The notes under the pieces were generated by a model that made no database searches, was not told the origin of the DNA, and worked only from the letters and a program-made list of their open reading frames with translations. From Mobula hypostoma (lineage: Eukaryota), in assembly GCF_963921235.1 (NCBI RefSeq), contig NC_086108.1:55430001-55494000 (forward strand): a stretch of DNA of 64,000 bases, read 5' to 3'. Positions within the stretch are counted from its first letter, which is position 1. The number at the start of each line of letters is the position of its first letter. Positions 12,853 to 63,426 of the stretch are shown one piece after another. The translations under genes were made by a program, and so were the position numbers.

Positions 12853-15800
12853 CTTTTTTTTTGTAATTTATTTTTTTATTGAATTTCATCATCAAAGAAA
12901 CATTTCCATAAGATGTATTTCAGATACTGTAATATATATTATATAATCATATTTGTCACAAATCTCCACATAATATTTTTCTGAGTATACACTTATAGAA
13001 AGGGGAGGAAAGAAAGAACAATCGAAAGAAGGAAACTATGTACAGGATAGGGTTACAACATATTCATTGACTTGTGAGAATAAAATCAAGCCTATGAGGC
13101 GTTATGTAGTTAAACCATTTTTCCCAGTATGAATAAAATTGTTCCAACATGATTAACAGATGCTGTTGTCTTCTCCATTTTGTAAATGTCCATTGTAATT
13201 TCCATCCATACATTTAAAGTCAGGCTCTCCTGTGATAACCATTTCCTGGTAAGGGTTTTTTACCAGCCACCAGCAGTACATTCATTAAATATTTACTGTA
13301 TATCTTTTCAACCATTCTTGAGGTATATACCCAAAATATATGGTCTTACTCTCTGAGGGTGTTTCACATTTAAAGATGTCTTGTAGGGCATTATGTATCC
13401 CACTCCAATAGTCTTTGATAACGGGGCATTCCCAGAAAATATGGTAATGGTTTGCATTTTGATTTCCACAATTTCTCCAGCAAACAGGGGGGTTACTATC
13501 ATAATGGGATTTCTGAGAGGGTGTAATAAAATATCTTATCAAGTTTTTCCACCCGAACTCCCTCCATTTCTGTGAACTGGTATACTTCCATTGATACCTC
13601 CATATTATTGTCCAGTCTTCCTCAGATATTATTATCCCTCCTTTCTTCTCCCATTTTGTTTTAATGTATGAAGTCGAATGTGTTTTAAGATTTGACAAAC
13701 CCTCAAACATGCTTGAAATGATTTTACTACCGTTGTCTGAATTATATGCTTTTCTAAATAGTTCTATCAGACATGTACCTGCCTTGGTTACATTTTTTAC
13801 CATCCTATTAACATACTGTCGCATCTGTAAATACCAGTAAAAGTCTTGTTTTTATAATAAGTGTTTCTCTTTCAGCATTTCAAAACTGAACAGTGTTCCT
13901 TCTTTCATTATATTGCAAATAAATGTAATTCCTTTAGCTGTCCAGTCCTTAAATCTAGCATCAAGTTTATTCGGCATAAAATCGGAGTCATATGCACACC
14001 ATTTAAGAATTGCAATGTCTCTCTCTAGTTTATATTCTTTTATAACAGTGTTCCATATTTTAAGAGTCCATTTCACCCACGGGTTGTCAATATTATTTAT
14101 GTAACTCTGTAGGTTGTTATCAGCCAAAATTGCCTGTATGGGGATGGAAAGTATCCTCTCCTCAATGTTTTTCCATTGAGGGCCATATGATAGGTTGCAC
14201 CAGCATATCACGGCTCTCAAATGTGCTGCAAAATAATAATCTCTAAGAGAAGGTAGGCCCCATCCCCCCTTTTCCTTGGCCAATTGCAAAGTTTTGAGAT
14301 GAACCCTAGGCCTTTTACCTTGCCATATATATCTTGATAGCATCTTGTTCCATTCATTGAATTGATTTTGGTTAATCTCTATTTGTAGGGTCTGAAAGAG
14401 ATATAATAGTCTGGGCAGTATATTCATTTTAATAGATTCAATCCTTGAACTGAGACCAAGAAAAGGAATTAGATTCCATCTTGTTATATCTTCCTTAAAT
14501 TTTTATATATATAGGCTGATAATTGAATTCTGATAATTTTGCCAAATCTTGTGGCATAATGATGCCCAAATATTTGATGGACTCTGTTTGCCATGCCCAA
14601 GGATATCTACTTTCAATTTCTCTTGGTGGGCTATAGTTTTATGAAAGTGGTTGGGTTGCATCTATGTTGATCTTGTATCCTGATAATTGGCCATATTGTT
14701 CAAAGGATTGCATCAGTTTAGGTAAAGAGTATGTTGGTTGCCCTAGGTAGATCAAAATGTCATCCGCGTAACAGGCCAATTTATGCTCTGTCCCTTTAAT
14801 AGTAATTCCCCTGATATCTTCATTTTGTCTGATGTATTGAGCTAATGGTTCCAGATATAATACGAAGAGTAGCGGTGACCATGCACAACCCTGTCTCGTG
14901 CCCCTTTCTAGGGTAAAACTATTAGATAGGTATCCATTGATTTTAATCCTAGCAGTAGGGTTGTCGTATAGTGCCTGTTTAGTTTTAATAATTGTGTCAT
15001 GTAGACTAAATCTATGTAAAACTCTGTAAAGAAAATTCCAATTAACCAAATCAAATGCCTTTTCAGCATCCATGCTGATCACTATTGCTTCAATTTCATT
15101 TTTTATATGATCCATAATGGACAGTGTCCTTCATATATTGTCTTGTTGTATAAAACCTATCTGATCATTATATATCAGTGTGGGTAGAAACTCCCCTCAT
15201 CATTTGGCCATGATGGAGGTAAATATCTATAATTCACATTAAGGACAGATATTGGTCTAAATGACCCGCATTCCATTTTATCCTTGCCTTCTTTCGGTAT
15301 AGCTGAGATTATCGCCTCCTTCCAGCTGGGTGGCATTTGTGCCTTTCTTAGGGCCCAGTTCAGTGTGAGGAGTAAAACAGGAATTAACTCACTTCTAAAC
15401 TCTTTATACCACTCTGCCGTATATCCATCTGATCCTGATGACTTGCTTAATTTAAGCCTACTAATTGCAGTTTTTAGTTCAATTTCAGTTATGTTAGCAG
15501 TCATCGTTCTATTTTGTTCTTTGCTTAAAGTGGGTAACTCTGGAGAATTCAGGAAGGTGTCAATTTGGGTTATGCTTCCCCCTGGAACTTTGGAATATAG
15601 AGTTTTGTAAAACATTTCAAAAGCTTCTTGAATTTCACTTAGCTTATTTTTTAATCACTTTTGTTCTCGGATCCCTAATTCTATGAATTGAATTTTCTGC
15701 TATCTTTTTTTTCAGTTTCCATGCCAGTATTTTCATAGATTTAGATCCACTTTCATAATGTCTCTGTTTCAGAAATATTAAATATTTTCTGATTTCTTGT

Positions 15801-26912: not shown

Positions 26913-29102
26913 CAAGAACCATAGAAACCATAGAAACTACAGCACAGAAACAGGCCTTTTGGCCCTTCTTGGCTGTGCCGAACCATTTTCTGCTTAGTCC
27001 CACTGACCTGCACACAGACCACATCCCTCCATACACCTCCCATCCATGTATCTGTCCAATTTATTCTTAAATGTTAATAAAGAACCCGCATTTACCACGT
27101 CATCTGGCAGCTCATTCCATACTCCCACCACTCTCTGTGTGAAGAAGCCCCCCGCTAATGTTCCCTCTAAACTTTTCCCCCCTCATCCTAAACCCAAGTC
27201 CTCTGGTTTTTTTCTCCCCTTGCCTCAGTGGAAACAGCCTGCTTGCATTCACTCTATCTATACCCATCATAATTTTATATACCTCTATCAAATCTCCCCT
27301 CATTCTTCTACACTCCAGGGAATAAAGTCCTAACCTATTCAACCTTTCTCTGTAACTGAGTTTCTCAAGTCCCGGCAACATCCTTGTAAACCTTCTCTGC
27401 ATTCTTTCAACCTTATTTATATCCTTCCTATAATTTGATGACCAAAACTGAACACAATACTCCAGATTCAGCCTCACCAATGCCTTATACAACCTCATCA
27501 TAACATTCCAGCTCTTATACTCAATACTTTGATTAATAAAGGCCAATGTACCAAAAGCTCTCTTTACGACCCTATCTACTTGTCACGCCACTTTTAGGGA
27601 ATTTTGTATCTGTATTCCCAGATCCCTCTGTTCTACTGCACTCCTCAGTGCCTTACCATTAACCCTGAATGTTCTACTTTGGTTTGTCCTTCCAATGTGC
27701 AATACCTCACACTTGTCTGTATTAAACTCCATCTGCCATTTCTCAGCCCATTTTTCCAGCTGGTCCAAGTCCCTCTGCAGGCTCTGAAAACCTTCCTCAC
27801 TATCTACTACACCTCCAATCTTTGTATCATCAGCAAACTTGCTGATCCAATTTACCACATTATCATCCAGATCATTGATATAGATGACAAATAACAATGG
27901 ACCCAGCACTGATCCCTGTGGCACACCACTAGTCACAGGCCTCCACTCAGAGAAGCAATTCTCTACCACCACTCTTTGGCTTCTTCCATTGAGCCAATGT
28001 CTAATCCAATTTACCACCTCTCCATGTATACCTAGCGACTGAATTTTCCTAACTAACCTCCCATGCGGGACCTTGTCAAAGGCCTTACTGAAATCCATGT
28101 AGACAATATCCACTGCCTTCCCTTCATCCACTTTCCTGGTAACCTCCTCGAAAAACTCCAATAGATTGGTCAAACATGACATACCACGAACAAAGCCATG
28201 TTGATGCTCCCTAATAAGTCCCTGTCCATCCAAATGCTTGTAGATTCTGTCTCTTAGTACTCCCTCCAATAATTTACCTACTACTGACATTAAACTCACC
28301 GGCCTATAACTTCCTGGATTACTTTTCGATCCTTTTTTAAACAACGGAACAACATGAGCCACTCTCCAATCCTCCGGCACCTCACCCATAGACAATGACA
28401 TTTTAAATATTTCTGCCAGTGCCCCCGCAATTTCAACACTAGTCTCCTACAAGGTCCGAGGGAGCACCCTGTCAGGTCCCGGGGATTTATCCACTTTAAT
28501 TTTCCTCAAGACAGCAAGCACCTCCTCCTTTTCAATCTGCACAGTCTCCATGATCTCACTACTTGATTCCCTCAATTCCATAGACTTCATGCCAGTTTCT
28601 TTAGTAAATACAGACACAAAAAACCTATTTAAGATCTCCCCCATTTCCTTTGGTTCCGCACATAGCCGACCACTCTGATCTTCAAGAGGACCAATTTTAT
28701 CCCTTACAATCCTTTTGCTCTTAATATACCTGTAAAAGCTCTTTGGATTATCCTTCACTTTGACTGCCAAGGCAACCTCATGTCTTCTTTTAGCCTTCCT
28801 GATTACTTTCTTAAGTATTTTCTTGCACTTCTTATACTCCTCAAGCACCTGATTTACTCCCTGTTTCCTATACATTTCATACCACTCCCTCTTCTTCTTT
28901 ATCAGAGTTGCAATATCCCTTGAGAACCAAGGTTCCTTATTCCTATTCAATTTGCCTTTAATCCTGACAGGAACATACAAACTCTGCACTCTCAAAATTT
29001 CCCCTTTGAAGGCTTCCCACTCACATCTTTGCCAGAGAACAACCTGTCCCAATCCACGCTTTTTAGATCCTAACCTGTCCCAATCCACGCTTTTTAGATC
29101 CT
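26913..29102 (-). mobile_element. Young CR1 LINE, 5'-truncated ORF2 with complete RT domain
   Basis: ORFs 28447-29088, 27583-28401 (YMDFSKAFD, PQGSVLGP, FADD) and 27112-27546 share one frame and are separated only by single stops. Tail (TTTCTATGG)2. Confidence 0.97.
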
Positions 29103-30987: not shown

Positions 30988-32375
30988 CAACACACATCAA
31001 AGTTGCTGGTGAACGCAGCAGGCCAGGCAGCATCTATAGGAAGAGGCGCAGTCGACGTTTCAGGCCGAGACCCTTCGTCAGGACTAACTGAAGGAAGAGT
31101 GAGTAAGGGATTTGAAAGCTGGAGGGGGAGGGGGAGATCCAAAATGATAGGAGAAGACAGGAGGGGGAGGGATGGAGCCGAGAGCTGGACAGGTGATAGG
31201 CAGAAGGGGATACGAGAGGATCATGGGACAGGAGGTCCGGGAAGAAAGACGGGGGGGGGGGTGACCCAGAGGATGGGCAAGAGGTATATTCAGAGGGACA
31301 GAAGGAGAAAAAGGAGAGTGAGAGAAAGAATGTGTGCATTAAAAAGAGTAACAGATGGGGTACGAGGGGGAGGTGGGGCCTAGCGGAAGTTAGAGAAGTC
31401 AATGTTCATGCCATCAGGTTGGAGGCTACCCATACGGAATATAAGGTGTTGTTCCTCCAACCTGAGTGTGGCTTCATCTTTACAGTAGAGGAGGCCGTGG
31501 ATAGACATGTCAGAATGGGAATGGGATGTGGAATTAAAATGTGTGGCCACTGGGAGATCCTGCTTTCTCTGGCGGACAGAGCGTAGATGTTCAGCAAAGC
31601 GGTCTCCCAGTCTGCGTCGGGTATCACCAATATATAAAAGGCCACATCGGGAGCACCGGACGCAGTATATCACCCCAGTCGACTCACAGGTGAAGTGATG
31701 CCTCACCTGGAAGGACTGTTTGGGGCCCTGAATGGTGGTAAGGGAGGAAGTGTAAGGGCATGTGTAGCACTTGTTCCGCTTACACGGATAAGTGCCAGGA
31801 GGGAGATCAGTGGGGAGGGATGGGGGGGACGAATGGACAAGGGAGTTGTGTAGGGAGCGATCCCTGCGGAATGCAGAGAGAGGGGGGGAGGGAAAGATAT
31901 GCTTAGTGGTGGGATCCCGTTGGAGGTGGCGGAAGTTGCGGAGAATAATATGTTGGACCCGGAGGCTGGTGGGGTGGTAGGTGAGGACCAGGGGAACCCT
32001 ATTCCTAGTGGGGTGATGGGAGGATGGAGTGAGAGCAGATGTACGTGAAATGGGGGAGATGCGTTTAAGAGCAGAGTTGATAGTGGAGGAAGGGAAGCCC
32101 CTTTCTTTAAAAAATGAAGACATCTCCCTCGTCCTAGAATGAAAAGCCTCATCCTGAGAGCAGATGCGGCGGAGACGGAGGAATTGCGAGAAGGGGATGG
32201 CGTTTTTGCAAGAGACAGGGTGAGAAGAGGAATAGTCCAGATAGTTGTGAGAGTCAGTAGGCTTATAGTAGACATCAGTGGATAAGCTGTCTCCAGAGAC
32301 AGAGACAGAAAGATCTAGAAAGGGGAGGGAGGTGTCAGAAATGGACCAGGTAAACTCGAGGGCAGGGTGGAAGTT
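30988..32375 (-). mobile_element. Young Penelope-like element: C-terminal RT/thumb, GIY-YIG endonuclease and pLTR
   Basis: Open frame within ORF 31380-32405: NFHPALEFT…LPFLD…YYKPTDSHNYL…CKRNKCYTC…GVIYCVRCSRCGLLYIGDT…RFAEH. 5'-truncated, lacking the catalytic RT core. Confidence 0.96.
31049..31086 (-). ncRNA. Minimal type I hammerhead ribozyme motif (PLE-borne)
   Basis: Minus strand UAGUC-CUGACGA-AGG(GUCUCGG)CCU-GAAAC-GUC-GACUG. Core intact; stem I AGUC/GACU. Confidence 0.82.
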
Positions 32376-32946
32376 CTCCAACTGCCAAGCCAATGTTGTA
32401 TCCAATTGGCTAGTTTGCCTTGAATCCCATGTGATTTAATTGTCTAGACCCGGCCTACCATATAGTACCTCATCAAAGCTAACATGTCAGCTGCTTTGCA
32501 CTCATCCATCTTCTTGGTCATCTCTTCAAGCAACTCTTAATCAAATTTATGAAACACTATTACTTGTATGAGGTAGGCGGTGTTGACTATTCATATTAAT
32601 TGGTCCTTTCCTTTCTAAATACGTATAGATGCTTTCTCTCAGTATTCTCTCTAATAATTTATCTACCACTGATCTTGGGCTCACCAGTCTAAATCTGAGG
32701 GTTTACTTCTGCAGAGAGTTGTGGACACAGCTCAGCGCATCATGGAAACCAGCCTCCTATACATGGACTCTGCCGATACTTCTTGCTGCCTCAGTAAGGC
32801 AGTCAGCATAATGAAAGACCTTGCCCACCATCAGACCCATCTCCCATCAGGCAGAAGATACAAAATCTTTCAAGGCCAGCTTCTATCTTGCTGTTTTCAG
32901 CCTATTGAATGGTTCTCTGGTATATTAAGATGTACTCTTGACTTCA

Positions 32947-33786
32947 AGCAACACACATCAAAGTTGCTGGTGAACGCAGCAGGCCAGGCAGCATCTCTAG
33001 GAAGAGGTACAGTCAACGTTTCAGGCCGAGACCCTTCGTCAGGGAGAAGGAAAAGTGGGGGAGGGGAAAAACCCAGAGGATGGGCAAGGGGTACAGTGAG
33101 AGGGACAGAGGGAGAAAAAGGAGAGTGAGAGAAAGAATGTGTGTATAAAAATAAATAGCGGATGGGGTACGAGGGGGAGGTAGGGCATTAGCGGAAGTTA
33201 GAGAAGTCAATGTTCATGCCATCAGGTTGGAGGCTACCCAGATGGAATATAAGGTGTTGTTCCTCCAACCTGAGTGTGGCTTCATCTTTACAGTAGAGGA
33301 GGCTGTGGATAGACATGTCAGAATGGGAATGGGATGTGGAATTAAGATGTGTGGCCACTGGGAGATCCTGCTTTCTCTGGCAGACAGAGCGTAGGTGTTC
33401 AGCAAAACGGTCTCCCAGTCTGCGTTGGGTCTCGCCAATATATAGAAGGCCACATCGGGAGCACCGAATGCAGTATATCACCCCAGCCGACTCACAGGTG
33501 AAGGCCTCCTGTCCCATGATCCTCTCATATCCCCTTTGCCAATCACCTGTCCAGCTCTTGGCTCCATCCCTCCCCCTCCTGTCTTCTCCTATCATTTTGG
33601 ATCTCCTCCTCCCCCTCCCACTTCCAAATCTCTTACTAACTCTTCCTTCATTTAGTCCTGACGAAGGGTCTCGGCCTGAAACGTCGACTGTACCTTTTCC
33701 TAGAGACGCTGCCTGGCCTGCTGCATTCACCAGCAACTTTGATGTGTGTTGCTTGAATTTCCAGTATCTGCAGAATTCCTCTTGTT
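32947..33786. mobile_element. Young fold-back Penelope-like element with inverted arms and 14-bp TSD
   Basis: Perfect TSD TACTCTTGACTTCA (32933-32946, 33787-33800). The minus arm (32947-~33502) carries the GIY-YIG C-terminus; the plus arm (~33503-33786) carries the pLTR and a 3' extension. Confidence 0.95.
33653..33690 (+). ncRNA. Minimal type I hammerhead ribozyme motif (PLE-borne)
   Basis: UAGUC-CUGACGA-AGG(GUCUCGG)CCU-GAAAC-GUC-GACUG. Core intact and identical to the 31049-31086 motif. Confidence 0.82.
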
Positions 33787-34040
33787 TACTCTTGACTTCA
33801 GTCTAGCTTATGATCTGGCACCTTATTGTTCACCTGCACAGCATTTTCTCTGTCGCTATTACTTTATTCTGCATTCTGTTATTGTTTTATCTTGTACTAC
33901 CTCAATGCAATTCAAGCTTTTCACTGTACCTAAGTAGACATGACATTCGGAACAAATTTAAATTCCAATTAATCTTGATGCCTTTCTTATATAAGGGTAC
34001 AGCAGTCTTCAGTCACCTTGCATGCAGCTAGCTATGATAC

Positions 34041-38760: not shown

Positions 38761-41328
38761 CCTCCATTTAACAAGGCTACATTAGTCTTTCAGATTATTT
38801 TCATTTCTCTACATTTCTGAACTTCCACTTCCTCAGCATTTGAGTTTATTTTTAAAAAAAATTGAATTCACCTTTTTCTTGGTTCACTGCCCACTCACCC
38901 TGTGCTGAAAGCCATTTGTCATGGTTTTGCTTATTCATTCTGTGAATGTCCCTTTGTAATTTTATTCTGTGTAATTATTTGCTGCTATCTACAATATTTA
39001 TCTGTCTCAGCAATCAGAGACAGCTATGCAGAGTTGATCGTATGGCTCTCTATTTTGTTATATAGGTCCTTAATGAGTGTGGTGAATAGTTGGGGCCTGA
39101 ACACAATCTTTATGGTATATCATCATTCATTTCCTTCCATTTCAAATGTACATTCAATTCCTAGTGCCTTCCCTATCTCTTAACCCTCCCAATAATTTCC
39201 TTTATTCTTGTAATTTTGGAGCTGTTAATTTCTTATGTGGGCCCCTATTAACACTATGTTGTCTTTTGGAGATGCACAAAAACTGGTCTCCTGTTCAGTT
39301 AGGTTAGAGATAGTTTATTGCACAAATCCACGTTGAGTTGCAAGTAAGAAATAATTGGCATACCAGCTTTGTCGAGTTGCTACAAGTCCTGTGGATTATG
39401 CACAACACAGCAGTAAAGAAGGGAATGAAAACTCAGGACAGGCAAAGTTTGCTACTTTCTTTGGTTGGTGTTCAGCTTTCTGAACATTATACCCAACCAG
39501 AAAAGTACTGAGTATTTTATCAAGCTGTAGATTTAAGCTTTGCAGATGGAGCACAGGCCTGAAGGTGCTTTAAAATGCACCACACAATGTCCAGTAACCA
39601 GACGGTGTTATTCTGGTAACTGGGGAATTAATGTATTTGGTTCAATTAAGTTTTAAGCTTCTAGCCAGCTGTAATCCAAAGATATAAGCAGCAAGTGTTG
39701 CAGTTGTAATTGCATCATTAAAGGTAAGGTAAAGTGTCAAAGAGCTACTGAATGTGAGAATGGAAGTGGCGTGCCTCATTTGCCTTTTATGCAGCATTTC
39801 TGTTGCCCTTGTGCATGAGCTCAAAACCACTGCAAGTACTCTCTGTTGCAATTTAGGCACTCTCGAGGGGGCAAGGATATTTTGTTTTTGAAGGATACTT
39901 TGACTACACCTGTGAATCTTTTCTTCTGCCTGCTTGGAAATCTCTTCCCACTGGCGGAGATCAGAACTGATTGTTTATTCTGGGAGTCTACCATCAGCAT
40001 TTCTCTGGTTTTCTCAGCAGAGGTCCTGAAGTCTGCATTAGCATGGGTTTAACCCCATAGTGGCACCTTGACTATGCTGCCAGCTGTGCCTCTGGTGCAG
40101 AGGTGAACTCTTTGTGGAGTCTAACAAGACGGTGAGAACTTGTGCATATTTCCCAGCTTTGGGAAACCTTTCATTTGCGCAAGTCTGGAATAAGAACAGC
40201 AAGCCCTGAGAAATCAATAGGTAGAAATGGCTGCTGGCAAAACATTAATTAGACCACCACCTTCGATTTTGATTCAGTTACTTCAAATATTTTTAAAAGC
40301 ATGTGCTTTCCCTTACTGTTTTGATTCCTGCATGTGCCAGTGATTTCAACAAGCTAAAAAGACATTCATTTTCAAAAATACTGTAATTTTCCTTGAAGTT
40401 ATTCAAGTTTTTTTAAAGTGGCAGGTCAGATTAGTTTTAATATAATTTATATAGGCTTTTAAAACTTTTGCAAAGTATCATTAGTTAAAGATAAATCAGG
40501 AAACCATCTCTGCCTTGAAAAGATACATAACTTTCTAGTCTAATCTAATCTAATCTAACTTCTGCATACTAGCACGTATATTTCAGCCAAGTAGAATGAT
40601 ATCTTGTGACAGCTTCTTGGCTTTAATGTATTCTTTGAAGAAATAGATTATTTTTACTGAAGTAGGAAAGTTTATTTTTTTTTGCAATTAAACCACTTAA
40701 TGTTGAAAAAGGACACCCTATTTAGCTCTCACGGGTTGTTAATCTTTTTCATAAACTATTGGGGTGAAGTAAATCTGAATGAAAATTTCAACTCGATCTT
40801 GAATGCTTGTTCTGTATCATGCATCATCATTACCGAACCAATTGAATGTTTTGTGGTTGATGATAAATAAATGATAAGAATTTTGTAACAGTTCTTTCCA
40901 AAACAGTATTCAACAAATTACTTGGTTTTTATTTTGAAGCATTAACATTTTACTTGGGTGATGCCTTGAGCTGAATGAATTTCATGCAGTTCATTGTGTG
41001 CTTCAGAGGCCTGCTTCATCCACTAGGCGGCTTCTGACATAAATGATCACACACTGACTAATATTCAAGACATCTATCAGTACTGCTGGAGCTCTTGTAA
41101 AAAGCAGCTGGCCATCATTACGTGTGGCAAGATAGTCTGGACAAGTCTAAGGTTTACAGGGGTTTCTTTTTATTGAAATTGTTTATTTAAATTTTTGCTT
41201 TAAGAGCAAAATATTTTTAACAGCTGCTTAATGTTGTTGTGCTGAAACCTTTTCCTACCAGCAAGAATATCTGAATGCAACACGGGACAAGAATTTTCAA
41301 TGGCACAAATTTGTTGAACATGAACAAA

Positions 41329-41567
41329 ATGACAACAAAGGACGTTTTTCGTTGTGAGCTCACGGCTCCTGAAGAGGATTCTTGCATTAGGATTTTTAAA
41401 GAGCATATGCATTTGGAACTGGAACCGTCCAAATTAACAGAAAAGAGAGCCACCTCTCCTAAAATCTCTCCTCGGAGCTCCCCAAGAAATTCTCCACGTC
41501 TGTTTAGAAAGTTGTTGGTGAATAAAAGCATTCGTCAACGCCGACGGTTTACTGTTGCACATACATG
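41329..41567 (+). CDS. PDE4B: Isoform-specific first coding exon of long-form cAMP phosphodiesterase 4B (PDE4B3-type N-terminus)
   Basis: Encodes MTTKDVFRCELTAPEEDSCIRIFKEHMHLELEPSKLTEKRATSPKISPRSSPRNSPRLFRKLLVNKSIRQRRRFTVAHT, matching the PDE4B3 N-terminus as I recall it (MTAKD…CIKTFKEQMHLELE…TSPKISPRSSPRNSP…RKLLVNKSIRQRRRFTVAHTC). Ends TG|GTAAGA, a phase-2 donor that completes Cys in the next exon. The ATG has A at -3. In-frame upstream ATGs lie at 41275 and 41320. Confidence 0.93.
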
Positions 41568-42929
41568 GTAAGAGCTTAATTACAGGAATATGTATTTTTA
41601 AATTTTAGATAAAATGGGTCATGGGGGACATTCTAATAAAAATTATCAGCAAAATGAATAGAATTAGAGGAATTGCATTAGATTAATAATATACCTTGTT
41701 ATCTATTGTGTAAGAAATAAATTCATTGTACTTTTTCTGCAAGGCAAACTGGGAAGCATGACCCATTGATAACAAGCTTAGCATGTTTACTATTGAAAAT
41801 GTCTTGTTGAGAGCTTGCAATGCAGTGATGGTTAGCAATGATTGCAGTTGCACCTGCAGAACAGCTGTATCAGCAGCACAGTGAATAAGCCCCTTTATCA
41901 TGTCATTGCAAAGTGTGTGGTTCTAAATTGTATCCCTTTGTAATTGAAGGACACTGATAAAGATCTCTTCAAGGGCCAAGTATTGATACCATCACTGCTT
42001 TGCTTTCAGGATTATTCACAGGAATACAGCAGTGTTACTAAATTTAAAAAAAACAGTTGTAAATACGATTCTATTGGCTGGTGTGAAATATCTGCAGTGT
42101 AGGAGCCACTTGTGTTATAATTTAACTCTGAAGCAGGTCCCATGCTATCATTTTAACTAAAAATAATTTCTGGCAGATAGTTATTATTGGGTTAAGTGAG
42201 AGAGCCAAATTTAAAATTCTCTGTGTGTTTTCCTGTTGAAGGTATAGTGTTCCTCCCTCAGCTGTTAATGAACTGCTCCATTGATGACATCGTGGTCTGA
42301 CTCTGATGCTGCTCTCAATTTGTTCAGCCCATGATATCATCCAATAGAACGGCTCATAGATCAGAATGGGGTGCTTCGTAACTTTGGCATTTATATTTTA
42401 AGGTGTACACATGAGTTTATAATTAATTATTCAGATAAAATTGTCATTCTATTTATTGCTAGCAGAATTTTTAAAGTCATTTGTTATTACATAAACCTCA
42501 AAGTTCGTCACAGCCTCTGTTGTGGCAACACAGTGGTACTCATGATATCATTTGGAACCACTCACCACCCACTTCTTATTCTCCCATTGCACTTAGCAAT
42601 CTTGTTGCTCTAAATACCTCTGGTCTTCCTCCTCCGTGTGTGAAATGCTAGCAGCACTGGTATTCAGTTTCTCTCTTCTTCTCCTAGTTGATTAAGAGCA
42701 AACATTAATATCAGAAAGGTTACCCAACAATAGCAGAGTGACTGAAAGAGATACATTATAGAAAATAACACCCATGTTGCCTGGCTGCAGAGTGTGGCAC
42801 AATGGAGGTTTCTTCTCGAAGGTGCACCTCTTTGAATACAGTTCATGACAAAATGTAACCAGTGTTCTGCTAACTGGGCAGAGGGTCTTTTATTCAGTAG
42901 TTATGAGTTTTGATTTTGCTTTCAAGCTA

Positions 42930-55340: not shown

Positions 55341-55493
55341 TGTCTCCTGTGCCCCAATTGATCATTTGTCTCTGACATATCTGCAATTTCCTAGTGTCAT
55401 TGCAAAATACACATTTATTCAATACCAATCTCCTCTTAACAATCTATCCTCCTCTAGGAAATGAAACACTAGTATAATTGATTGAGTAACATG

Positions 55494-55627
55494 GTCCTGA
55501 TGAAGGATCTCAGCCCAAAATGTCTGCTGTTTATTCCCTTCTGTAGACGCTATCTGTCTTGCTGACATCCTTCAGCATTTTGTGCGTATTGTTCAAGATT
55601 TCCAGCATCTGCAGAAACTCTTTTGTC
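55494..55627 (+). mobile_element. Solo PLE terminal unit beginning at the hammerhead motif (degenerate)
   Basis: GTC-CTGATGA-AGGATCTCAGCCC-AAAATGTC, followed by the pLTR end and tail. Confidence 0.8.
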
Positions 55628-55730
55628 TATAATTGGTTAAATTCTTCAGTTCTACAGCAAAGTGCAGGTAGAATGTATTATTAATATTTTATTATAGTTA
55701 AATTATTTCTCAAGCTTCTGCCCCCTCCCA

Positions 55731-56000
55731 TGGTGGCATAGTAGCACAGTGGTTAGTGTAACACTATCAGAGCACCAGCAATCAGTAATGCTGTCTGTAC
55801 ATTCTCCCCAGTACAATGTGGGTTTCCTCCCACATTCCAAAGATGTAAGGGTTAGGGTTAATAAGTTGAGGGCATGCTATTTTGGTGTGGGAAGCATGAC
55901 GACACTTGCAGGCTGTCTCCAGCATATCTTCAGCCTGTGGTTGTTGATGCATTTCAGTGTATGTTTCAGTGTTTTGATGGACATATGACAAATAAAGCTA
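55731..56000 (+). mobile_element. V-SINE variant with non-CR1 tail
   Basis: tRNA-like head (tagcacagtggttag), partial V-domain (gggtttcctcccacattccaaagat) and tail 'atgacaaataaagcta'. Confidence 0.72.
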
Positions 56001-56784
56001 TTTTTTAAATTAAATTTACTAACCAGCCAGAGAAAAAAATTCCAAGGAATCTTTCATTGTGGCATAGTGGCACAACAAGTAGAGCTATTCCCTCTAGACT
56101 TCTGTGATCTTTCTCGTGCCGTCTACGAACAGGTTTAGGTTTCTCTGTTTCTGCATTGATTCTTTTGGGTATATTGATGTCTTTCCACATCACAAGCGTG
56201 GTTCAGTGCAATAATTGCCCTAGTTTGTAGCTGCGAAGAGCTGATGGTGGAGTTGTATGGAGACGAGGATATAGAACAATTGTAGCGGAACAGTGTTGCT
56301 GAAGAGCTGACAAAATTAATTTGCTGAAATACTGTCTTGTACAGTAGATTGTAAGAAAATATGGAAATGCCTACTGTCATGCTGAACAGAATGATTTGTT
56401 GAGATTTCAGCAAACATGATTGCATTAAGCTCACTAGTCCTTCATTGGGCGACAAGACTATCAATTAAGTTTGAACATATAGCCAAATATAGAGGTGTAT
56501 TTTCAAACACATCAAGGAAAACAAATTATAGGTTGTCTATGCAGAATAATCAGCAACAATGCTCAGTGTAAAGCAGAGCATTTTCTTAGGCTAGTGAGTG
56601 ACATATAACCGTCTATCCAACTCCAGTCTGTTGTCTTAAACTTGCTGTCAGCTGGTACACGTCTCAAGCTAGGATGAGTGGCAAAGTAATAACACATTCA
56701 AAAGAAGCTATAAAGGTTCACTGAAAATCTTCCTATTTTCACTTGTTAATTTTGAAAGTGGTTGACTGTTTTGTTTTCATTGCT

Positions 56785-60114: not shown

Positions 60115-60255
60115 AAAAACACAAAAATGCAAAACCCGCTGGTGCTGGGTATCAAATTTAAAAACAAATCCTGAAGATACTCATCAGGTCAGGCAGCATT
60201 GATAGAAAGAGAAAAAAGAGTTAACATTTCATGCTGGTGATGATCTCATCAGAAC
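60115..60255 (-). mobile_element. Solo PLE-type terminal unit (third family) with degenerate hammerhead
   Basis: Minus strand GTT-CTGATGA-…-GAAAT-GTT-AAC (60220-60255), followed by 'atgctgcctgacctgatgagtatcttcagg'. Confidence 0.65.
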
Positions 60256-60444: not shown

Positions 60445-61243
60445 TTAAACCGAGGCAGGTGATCCACATAGATCAGGCTTCTGCTGTAGCTGGCAGGAAA
60501 ATCTCTGACAGCTACTTCGTGATACTGTTGCCTATGTGCAGGACAGAGGGGGTGGATGCCTTCCTGGTCAGCGTGAACCAGGAGCTGGCCTTCAACAGGA
60601 TATCATGTACATACATAATGGATGTTGTGCTCTCCAAAATGTATTTTGGGGAGGGAAGCAGAAACTAGATCCAACTGCTCTGCACTGATATCTATACATC
60701 CACTGATGTTCATATCAGTGAGCAGGAGACACAGTTCCCCTTCAAATCTGAAGTCGGGTAGCATTGTTTACTTTCCCATCTTGCGTGTATGCTATTTAGA
60801 GCCCTTTCCCAAATCCATCAGGAAGGACGGGCGCTTACGTTAGACAGGTGTCGTTGTCAGCACACTTGTCAAAACTACCCTGTACATGGATATGTCGCTG
60901 TCTTCTGCTCAGATCCATGGTCACTTTGCAGATTGGTCGGCAATTATGACCAGCTTAAGTTGGCATCAGGGGCCAGAGTCAACTCCAGGAAGTGCAAGGC
61001 CACTGTCTTTGGTAACTGACCCAACCGACCCTTCACAGTCAGACTCAACTACCTGAAACTGCTGGGGAACTGGCTCGGAGGGACGGAGGTATGTAACAAT
61101 AGTTGGCCGAAGATGATTGGGAAGGCAAAACAAAAATTGGGTCTCTGGAATGACATACTCTGTCAATAACTGCTTCTTCATTTGTGTACATTTTATACAC
61201 ATTTTTATCATGAATAAAGTTTAATTTTGAAATTGCAAAAAAG
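60445..61243 (+). mobile_element. Tx1-like (L1 group) RT fragment joined to an AATAAA/A-tail
   Basis: AVAGRKISDS…GVDAFLVSVNQELAFNRISCTYIMDV…FGEG and VAVFCSDP…LASGARVNSRKC (ORFs 60459-60668, 60789-61019). AATAAA at 61213, then oligo-A. Confidence 0.75.
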
Positions 61244-61267
61244 TCCACTGCATTTACCCCATTGTGT

Positions 61268-61305
61268 GGGTCCTGATGAAGGGTCTCAGCCCGAAACGTC
61301 GACTG
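61268..61305 (+). ncRNA. Minimal type I hammerhead ribozyme motif
   Basis: GGGUC-CUGAUGA-A-GGG(UCUCAG)CCC-GAAAC-GUC-GACUG. Core intact; stem I GUC/GAC plus a G·U pair. Confidence 0.78.
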
Positions 61306-61402
61306 TGCTTCTTCCTATGGATGCTGTCTGGCCTGCTGTGTTCCACCAGCATTTTGTGTGTGTGTGTTATTGAATTTCCGGCATCTGCAGATTTCCTCGT
61401 GT
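61272..61402 (+). mobile_element. Solo PLE terminal unit starting at the hammerhead, with 10-bp flanking direct repeat
   Basis: TTGTGTGGGT at 61262-61271 and 61403-61412. The body is the hammerhead, pLTR end and tail. Confidence 0.9.
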
Positions 61403-61439
61403 TTGTGTGGGTATAAGCCTCATTTCTCATGGGATACTT

Positions 61440-63016
61440 GGTTTCTCAGCTCTGCCATGCCATTTCTATTTCTATGGTATTTTAGAGAAATAACATTCAT
61501 TCCTGTTATGAACTTCTGGACCTTGGCCTTTTATGACCTTAAATAACTTAGGCTACCTAATATCTGACTCCTGTAAGAAAGTTAGTTCATTATCTTTGAA
61601 ATGTTATTCAAACTCATTTTTTGGAATGACTGAAACAACCAAACAAGTGTCCAATTCCATTTTATTTTATGTTCCTTTCACTTCTCGTGTAAGCCATATT
61701 GTTCACCTATTGTTGGTTTTCACATCACAAATCTCAAGGCCAACCAGTCCTGTGTCTCTCTCATCATTATCAGATTTTTCATCAGCAGCATGCAGATTAG
61801 TGCTGTTTTTGAAACTGCAACTTTTTATCTTTTTCTCTCCCCTGTGCAGTTTCCTTTATTTTTGTCTGTCTGACATGCTCTTTATATGTTTCCTACTGTG
61901 TTGTATTTTCTGCAAATTTCAACTTTAACCCTGCATTGGTCTGGTGTATGTGAGCCCCTGCTACACGGTAACACAATTTGTTCAGCTTGGCGGGTTTCTG
62001 TTTAGAGATTGTAATTTTGTTCACATGCACGTTCATTCCTGACTACAACTCAATTGTGTCTCTGTTTCAATTGATACAGCGATAGCAACTGCTATTTTAA
62101 ATTTGAGTTGTGCTTCAGTTTGGAGCTATTTTTGAATGCTTTATAAGAAAATTCCACAAACTAAACTATTTCTCAGTGTATCATTAAGCCTATCAATTGA
62201 CAATGCTCAGACAATTGTTTTCAATTCAGCCTTGTACACGGAAATGGACTCCCCTTCCTTTTGATCCTGCTTATGGAACCTAGAGTATTCTGCAATCAAT
62301 AATGGCTTTGGTTCTAAATGTTCCTGCATTATATTCACAACATCAGCAAAACCCATCTTAATTGCTTTGATTGGTGCAGAGAAACTTTGAAGCAAATATA
62401 TGCTTTTCCACTAATAGTCAGCAATTGCATTCAGTAAAACTGGCACCCATTTCTCATTGGCTATTCCCTTTGCTTTAAAATACTGCTCAATTCGCTCAGT
62501 TTACAATATCCAGTTATTTCTTATGCAATTGAACCCATCTATCTTTCCAATCTAGCCAGCCATTTCTGCTTTTTTCTTAAATTTATGGTTATTATCACCC
62601 TGTATTCACTCTTTTTGAACCTGTGAATTTGCCCCTTTTCTTTTTTTAACTCAGTTGACTCTGTCCCTTCTTGAAGCACAAGCTGCATTTTTTTTATAAC
62701 TTCGATGTCTTGTTGCACTTCACTCGTCAGTAGTTGTCTCAGGTTCATTTAAAACTTCCTCATCGCCAGTGTTATGTTTAGTAACCCCAAGACATAAAGC
62801 TGATTGAAAGGAAAACACAGAACTGGGAGATGCATTTCTTTGTTTCATTTTTGCTTTAGCAAGGTGCACACGTATGGCATGGTGACATGATGACTTGTGC
62901 CATTCATGTAATTTTACATAAAACCCATAATGAATTATATAAAAATGAAGAATGCCTAGTCAAACAATATATTTATAATATTATTCATATATTACTGAAA
63001 TATTAAATACATGTCA
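61440..63016 (-). mobile_element. Gypsy LTR retrotransposon 5' part: LTR (62770-63016), PBS, decayed gag-protease
   Basis: On the minus strand the LTR ends …CATAACA, then PBS-like CTGGCGATGAGG (62758-62769). Gag ORF 62207-62395 (HLEPKPLLIAE…FHKQDQKEGESISVY…LK). Protease motif MELDTC near 61640-61660. Confidence 0.88.
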
Positions 63017-63333: not shown

Positions 63334-63426
63334 GTCCTGAATTAGGGTCTCAGCTTGAAATGTCAGCAGTTTATTCTTTTCTATAGATGCTGCCTGGTCT
63401 GCTAAATTCCTCCAGCATTTTGTGTG
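63334..63426 (+). mobile_element. Solo PLE terminal unit beginning at a degenerate hammerhead
   Basis: GTCCTGAATTAGGGTCTCAGCTTGAAATGTC…ATAGATGCTGCCTG…CTCCAGCATTTTGTGTG. Confidence 0.75.

Follow-up and report, generated by a model that had tools for sequence, protein, structure and literature searches.

The closest described systems are the 5'-truncated insertions and solo pLTRs of EN+ Penelope-like elements (PLEs) of the Neptune and Nematis types. In the available portions of their descriptions, these elements carry an ORF with RT and GIY-YIG-type parts joined by a Cys linker, form partial tandems and head-to-head inverted partners, and bear an optional tail of 30-40 nt on one end (PMC8557442, PMC3846280). 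Short target-site duplications (TSDs) and microhomology at the 5' junction are also described there, and both were found at the locus reported here. The same portions mention frequent 5' truncation and no preferred 5' end (PMC8557442, PMC3846280), whereas about 14% of the ends sampled here fall within 5 nt. In the Anolis Poseidon element PAc, according to the main text of its biochemical study, the RT can start internally at two sites that lie downstream of the hammerhead with about 40 nt between them, cleavage is dispensable and there are no RNA ends at the cut site (PMC11167929), and the element studied here appears alike in these respects. The two differ in the ORF start, which lies inside the hammerhead in PAc, while the first ATG is located about 170 nt downstream here; the 5' junction is not addressed in that main text. 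The minimal metazoan PLE hammerheads of Cervera and De la Pena were, in the sections available, mostly single motifs from truncated PLEs with a type I core, an extra nucleotide before stem II and palindromic 15.2-16.2 positions, all of which apply here as well, and monomers of this type were without cleavage (PMC4209133). Stem II has 3-4 bp here and 7-8 in the Schistosoma motifs (PMC4209133), and cleavage here is only predicted. Non-LTR retrozymes, reported in one chondrichthyan genome, are likewise non-coding, pLTR-derived and provided with a type I hammerhead, but in the accessible text they are tandem arrays of at least two hammerhead units (bioRxiv 10.64898/2026.07.22.740005), whereas the units here are dispersed monomers that track their parent PLE families. 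The element type, tail, TSD and minimal hammerhead have thus already been described, while a preferred or fixed 5' start at the foot of stem I was not reported in the literature searched, which left aside most subscription journals and the Repbase and Dfam notes.

The unit at 61262-61412 of the window (the whole stretch of 64,000 nt that was analysed) comprises the hammerhead and tail from the end of a Neptune-type PLE that is abundant and was recently active. Throughout, +1 denotes the G at window position 61270, the first stem I base owned by the element here, and -1 the preceding base in long copies. The unit is flanked by a direct repeat of 10 bp (Table 1), which is a true TSD because the empty site is present in a contig of a related species (organism C). 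In contig 26 of run X9 (373 nt), 61121-61261 is joined directly to 61403-61634 without a contig gap, 141 letters being aligned to the left and 232 letters to the right of the empty site. Only one copy of the 10-bp duplication is found there, which corresponds to a net insertion of 141 bp. The unit is therefore a real insertion, and this check of the orthologous site upholds the initial annotation, which had read the locus as a unit mobilised by a PLE with its own TSD. Organism B seems to share the 141-bp insert, its contigs spanning the left junction by 27 letters against a threshold of 31 letters. TSD and element share 2 nt on the 5' side and about 6 nt on the 3' side, which amounts to microhomology at both junctions. 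The 61270 unit has 97% identity to a long copy of its own subfamily and was placed inside family A in the tree. A pile-up of loose ends and joints at 61270 in the organism alignments was attributed to the reference switching to host DNA and was given no weight.

Table 1 Features of the window and of the composite copies at three other loci (literature layouts and start sites are from the available parts of the papers)
Feature	Position	Strand	Evidence or remark
TSD, left copy	61262..61271	+	Last 2 nt are element +1 and +2; single copy at the organism C empty site
Minimal type I hammerhead motif	61270..61304	+	Sequence, fold, layout as in PMC4209133
Stem I, 5' strand	61270-61272
Hammerhead core	61273-61279
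Stem II	61281-61292
GAAA	61293-61296
Stem III, palindromic, 4 nt, no loop	61296-61299
Predicted cut	61300/61301
Stem I, 3' strand	61301-61304
Rest of repeat to first GU-rich 3' terminus (~+94), putative first RT start site	61305..61365	+	3'-end clusters; PMC11167929
Optional ~40-nt tail to second 3' terminus (~+134)	61366..61408	+	Final ~6 nt common to TSD
TSD, right copy	61403..61412	+	Sequence and organism C empty site
Older copy starting at +1 (55494)	55473..55638	+	Tailed, broken core
Older family-B copy starting at +1	63334..63426	+	Untailed; core broken; candidate duplication decayed
Decayed copy of a more distant family	60130..60255	-	Core retained, stem II degraded
5'-truncated young PLE of the parent lineage	30990..32380	-
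Head-to-head PLE pair of the parent lineage	32951..33787	.	One arm tailed, other untailed
Other LINE-type ORF fragments	13285-15654; 27112-29100	-; -	RT-like frames
PDE4-type alternative first coding exon of host gene	41275..41570	+	Motif scan
Composite copies	L151:2239-3036; L014:1-306; L006:1282-1634		ORF-5'-half joined to A(-1)

An intact open frame of 1043 codons (1016 aa from the first Met) was found at 6 of the 116 loci listed for the parent protein. Regular-expression searches located the DKG and YIDD RT motifs and an IY..YIG end, with a C-x4-C-x2-C linker at aa 883. In Pfam, RVT_1 was matched below the cut-off (E = 3-4e-5) and GIY-YIG was not matched, and a PDB search with the protein gave no informative match. 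Since a Cys linker between RT and EN marks Neptune and Nematis in the portions available (PMC8557442, PMC3846280), the protein points to an EN+ PLE of the Neptune/Nematis type. In full-length copies, a pyrimidine-rich spacer of 300 nt is followed by the hammerhead, then by the termini at +94 and +134, and finally by the ORF's first ATG at about +170, toward which the tail sequence continues. All six are preceded by tandem sequence, and the partial tandems begin at scattered points from -183 to -3337. At L053:3779-3783, at least four joints in run X1 return to -1..+4 from +34, +36, +38 and +90, which corresponds to short head-to-tail repeats of the hammerhead region. Matches to PLE ends numbered 376 in 160 evenly spaced 10-kb stretches, or about 8x10^5 when extrapolated to the genome. 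The 3' ends of the copies gather in two regions, around +90..+105 and +125..+135, whose spacing of about 40 nt matches that of the two internal RT start sites of PAc. Because exactly one arm was tailed in 48 of 52 head-to-head pairs (P = 1e-10; loci L002-L250 and the window, including some selected loci), it is suggested that each end of the target DNA is served by one of the two RT start sites. One very young family (L051-L056, e.g. L053:3178-7425) has intact 1043-codon frames and 99% identity among its copies, and is probably still active.

The initial annotation had described the 61270 unit as a solo copy made of an intact hammerhead, a pLTR end and a tail between TSDs. All of these parts were located, and the word intact holds in the sense of a minimal motif lacking a stem-III loop. 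The conserved core boxes are present, and stem I and stem II have 3-4 bp each by sequence and fold. The 61270 copy shows the complete minimal type I set (core, stems I and II and loopless palindromic stem III), and the copies at 55494 and 63334 do not. Its ribozyme is a loopless motif of the dimer type by sequence, and any self-cleavage would be expected of a dimer or with protein assistance. No Rfam family matched the window at the gathering threshold. The predicted cut lies 31 nt into the unit, so the start lies upstream of it.

To obtain the distribution of 5' ends, a position-blind sample of 160 x 10 kb (1.6 Mb) was used. The 376 matches were reduced to 367 by de-duplication and to 243 by filters applied with family-specific references (an identity of 82% or more, 40 or more aligned nt, and a 3' end at or past +85), the 124 excluded copies being too old, short or 3'-incomplete. 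The 30 best-scoring matches, being selected by score, were left out of the histogram and included in the tree and base tallies. The histogram is not smooth: 35 of the 243 ends fall at -3..+2, where 10.3 were expected from the flanking stop rate (P = 1.3e-9, or 1.2e-7 after a 90-fold correction). The mode is at -1, the A before the motif (14 ends), followed by +1 (10), -2 (5), +2 (4) and -3 (2). The stop rate per nt is 5.5% at the site, against 1.3-2.1% at +3..+20 and 1.4-1.7% at -4..-20. The excess is present both where an inverted arm is lacking (18 ends vs 5.7 expected, P = 3e-5; 16 when two pyrimidine-rich flanks are subtracted) and where there is one (17 vs 4.5 expected). For the solos it gave P = 0.003-0.013 against the steeper rate at +3..+10. 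All four families contribute (A 9, B 12, C 10, D 4). The initial annotation's view that starts at stem I exceed random truncation is thus borne out.

The shared start at the hammerhead is real but partial. Starts outside the peak make up 86% of the sampled copies, and the hammerhead-start ends are about 14% (about one in seven), or roughly 4-8x10^4 by extrapolation to the genome. A reference-free method gave a broad hump only (66 of 331 ends in -10..+10), and among arms of the 61270 subfamily picked by their 3' pattern only 3 of 24 start at -3..+2. A TSD of at least 8 nt directly next to the start was seen in 5 of the 22 solos from the peak and also in 8 of the 60 remaining short solos, so the TSD is not special to the hammerhead-start class. 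Self-cleavage as the source of the 5' ends was rejected, as it had been in the initial annotation, because only 5 of the 243 ends lie at +30..+34 and no peak is seen at the cut site. The structure-defined RT stop offered there fared less well. A stop at the ribozyme fold is unlikely from geometry, because an RT moving 3' to 5' would meet stem I at +36 first and would have melted it by +1, and the fold of the unit is not better than that of shuffled sequences (z = 0.55). A template end at -1 fits better than such a stop.

The other suggestion of the initial annotation was a retrozyme- or SINE-like non-autonomous unit, i.e., a separate family (SINE-like or monomeric retrozyme) amplifying from short masters or circles. 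The share of about 14% of sampled ends at one site is in line with this, as are a few joints, among the DNA-contig joints listed, that return to -1..+4 as head-to-tail repeats would. It was contradicted by the tree (157 copies, 92 columns, weakly resolved), in which the 43 hammerhead-starting copies are interspersed with long copies and need 33 label changes. A single origin of the short-start copies occurred in 0% of 200 bootstrap trees, and at least six origins are forced by well-supported branches. Slight clustering of short starts, which would favour a separate family, was seen (12 of 500 shuffles as low), and it arises because loci L002-L069 were picked selectively. Hammerhead-starting copies occur in all four resolved families (A-D), in each with that family's own sequence, and both 3' ends are used. 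No selection for intact cores is apparent, these being found in 9 of 34 hammerhead-starting copies vs 24 of 85 long copies. A clade of their own with diagnostic changes and a fixed 5' end, as in a SINE-like family, was not found, and the 61262 copy is a single unit between TSDs rather than a tandem array of at least two hammerhead units, as in non-LTR retrozymes. Solo units mixed with long copies are what the initial annotation had named as evidence against its own suggestion. The unit is not a member of a separate retrozyme or SINE family but a 5'-truncated product of a known PLE type, and the chance that such a family underlies the stubs is considered minimal.

A flat stop rate with a single spike would suggest that a subset of templates ends at one base. 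The origin that we favour, as slightly more likely than not, is that the stub was made by an RT that was primed internally at the tail site and then ran off an RNA 5' end predicted at A(-1). Following the biochemistry of the Anolis PLE in the text available (PMC11167929), the endonuclease would nick the target and the RT would start inside the RNA at one of two sites, hammerhead cleavage not being required. In the simplest case, a Pol II initiator-like site some 170 nt ahead of the ATG would give rise to some PLE RNAs starting at A(-1), which would carry the repeat +1..+134 at both ends. Priming in the first repeat copy would then give a strong-stop-like cDNA of 95-135 nt, which could be joined to the target via 2-6 nt of microhomology. 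Of the cDNAs reaching +2, about a sixth would stop there above background, and the rest would continue into the spacer.

The RNA end at A(-1) is predicted from genomic ends and contigs, and evidence was found on both sides. The motif YYAGTCC occurs at the site in all four family consensuses and fits the vertebrate initiator consensus, with the A as the start. In family D, A(-1) is kept in 8 of 8 long copies, in three of which its stem-I partner is mismatched. A G at -2, which would be cap-like, was found in 7 of 13 solos vs 29% in the control (P = 0.05, one-sided, post hoc), and overall in only 8 of 22. Three composite copies (3 of 12 same-strand junctions) consist of sequence from the 5' half of the ORF, 4-8 unmatched A-rich nt and a unit starting exactly at -1, and ORF-5'-half sequence amounts to only 2,118 bp in the 1.6 Mb. 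For R2 RT, untemplated addition followed by template jumping has been described, as far as the available text goes (PMC8857657). The composites weakly back an RNA end at A(-1); the enrichment of jumps at the site is not significant (2/24 vs 2/70, P = 0.27, with L006 scored at -7). Against a start site, none of the six full-length copies starts at -1, and the YAG at the site is also largely explained by stem-I pairing.

The same run-off could take place on an RNA end left by decay. On read-through or intronic PLE RNA, a 5'-to-3' exonuclease would digest the pyrimidine spacer, which is unstructured, and stall at the folded or protein-bound hammerhead, stem I beginning at -2. This would explain why the peak lies at the 5' foot of stem I in each of four families that have diverged, and PLE protein aids hammerhead activity in vitro (PMC11167929, available text). 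Decay would need no promoter and fits the scattered upstream starts of the full-length copies. The position fits less well, as the mode lies inside stem I, at -1/+1, while a stalled exonuclease should stop a few nt short of the helix. The monomer fold is also not unusually stable, and the slight surplus of G at -2 may point to a cap. An end produced by decay is regarded as unlikely.

It is also conceivable that no RNA end is involved and that the cDNA preferentially stops or is joined at the site. A protein on the acceptor-like pyrimidine tract and YAG might block the RT there, or microhomology joining might be steered by a 4-nt inverted repeat at about +2/+3. The pyrimidine tract with YAG at -2..+1 is present in all four families, the same spot is an intron end in D. 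virilis (PMC4209133, sections available), and 17 of the 35 peak copies adjoin an inverted arm. The excess is nevertheless also seen in solos, which have no second arm, and the start points of paired arms are uncorrelated (rho 0.14, P = 0.32). A block at the acceptor should, moreover, stop the RT at or downstream of +1 and not at -1. We regard a stop or joining preference of this kind as rather unlikely. In the minus-strand arm at 32951-33500 of the head-to-head pair in the window, as read by eye, about 170 nt of the spacer are deleted and the sequence is rejoined at +3, apparently via 4 nt of microhomology.

The acceptor-like motif raises the further reading that the stubs are copies of spliced PLE RNA whose first exon was joined to +2. 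There is a precedent in the D. virilis Penelope, which starts 46 nt before a 75-nt intron (PMC2377424). Because the 3' end of that intron maps to helix I in the text available (PMC4209133), the homologous position in D. virilis is a splice acceptor and not a start. Here, neither spacer nor ORF-end sequence was found as a shared upstream first exon in any of 29 family-A copies starting at -5..+3, and none of the three ORF joins ends at a GT donor. The abutting TSDs of at least 8 nt in 5 of the 22 peak solos leave no room for such an exon, as the empty site shows for the 61262 copy. Among the 15 of 162 joints listed (from one DNA run and three putative-RNA runs), no GT..AG joint into +2 was seen, though this does not show that such joints are absent. 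Copying of spliced RNA is considered very improbable as the source of the stubs, while a 5'-UTR intron in the PLE as in the D. virilis Penelope is possible on sequence grounds. In family A, a branch-point-like motif lies about 16-20 nt upstream, and there is another AG at -5 (L053:3755-3781 and consensuses). RNA-contig depth was lower over the spacer and, contig depth being no measure, was given no weight.

If the run-off reading is extended, vertebrate Neptune-type PLEs may make terminally redundant RNA starting at hammerhead stem I, the strong-stop cDNA of which either integrates as a 95-135-bp stub or jumps template in a retrovirus-like manner. Jumps into the 3' repeat could build the partial tandems that define PLEs, with one start site for each end of the target DNA. 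This general scheme is tentative and, taken as a whole, on the doubtful side. The RNA start, the formation of tandems and inverted pairs and the role of the ribozyme all belong to the PLE replication cycle. With an active PLE family whose ORFs are intact, and with tens of thousands of junctions pointing to one nucleotide, this genome makes the question of the PLE start testable.

The initial annotation had listed copies at 55494, 63334 and 60255 as also beginning in stem I. The first two do start at +1 and have non-element DNA directly upstream of it; the 55494 copy shows a 10/11 duplication (55473-55483 and 55628-55638) with 10 extra nt ahead of +1. The start at 60255 is putative, since the sequence resolved for its family leaves out the part upstream. 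The four named copies belong to different, diverged families, and only the one at 61270 is intact. Four such starts in 8 kb had been taken as beyond random truncation. At the genome-wide rate, +1-type starts in all four named copies have P = 4e-4, and the genome-wide excess is real; among the roughly 13 copies counted by hand in the whole window, the same four starts have P = 0.11, so the local cluster is partly luck. The young PLE at 30990 has an RT end, Cys linker, GIY-YIG-type end, the 300-nt pyrimidine-rich spacer and a hammerhead without tail. The sequence just upstream of the 61262 unit (60480-61215, plus strand) is LINE-like and decayed, and contains a polyadenylation signal and a short A run. 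The stretch adjoining the 55494 copy (55730-56010, plus strand) is presumably a tRNA-headed SINE-like repeat.

The 61262 copy was said to be sense within an intron of PDE4B. It is indeed sense to the PDE4-type exon in the window and to PDE4_UCR exons located about 326-352 kb downstream on the same strand. A PDB search with the exon gave no useful match. The host gene is a PDE4 gene, presumably PDE4B, and the exon is presumably PDE4B3-like. No effect on the host pre-mRNA is indicated, and the copy is probably inert in the host intron.
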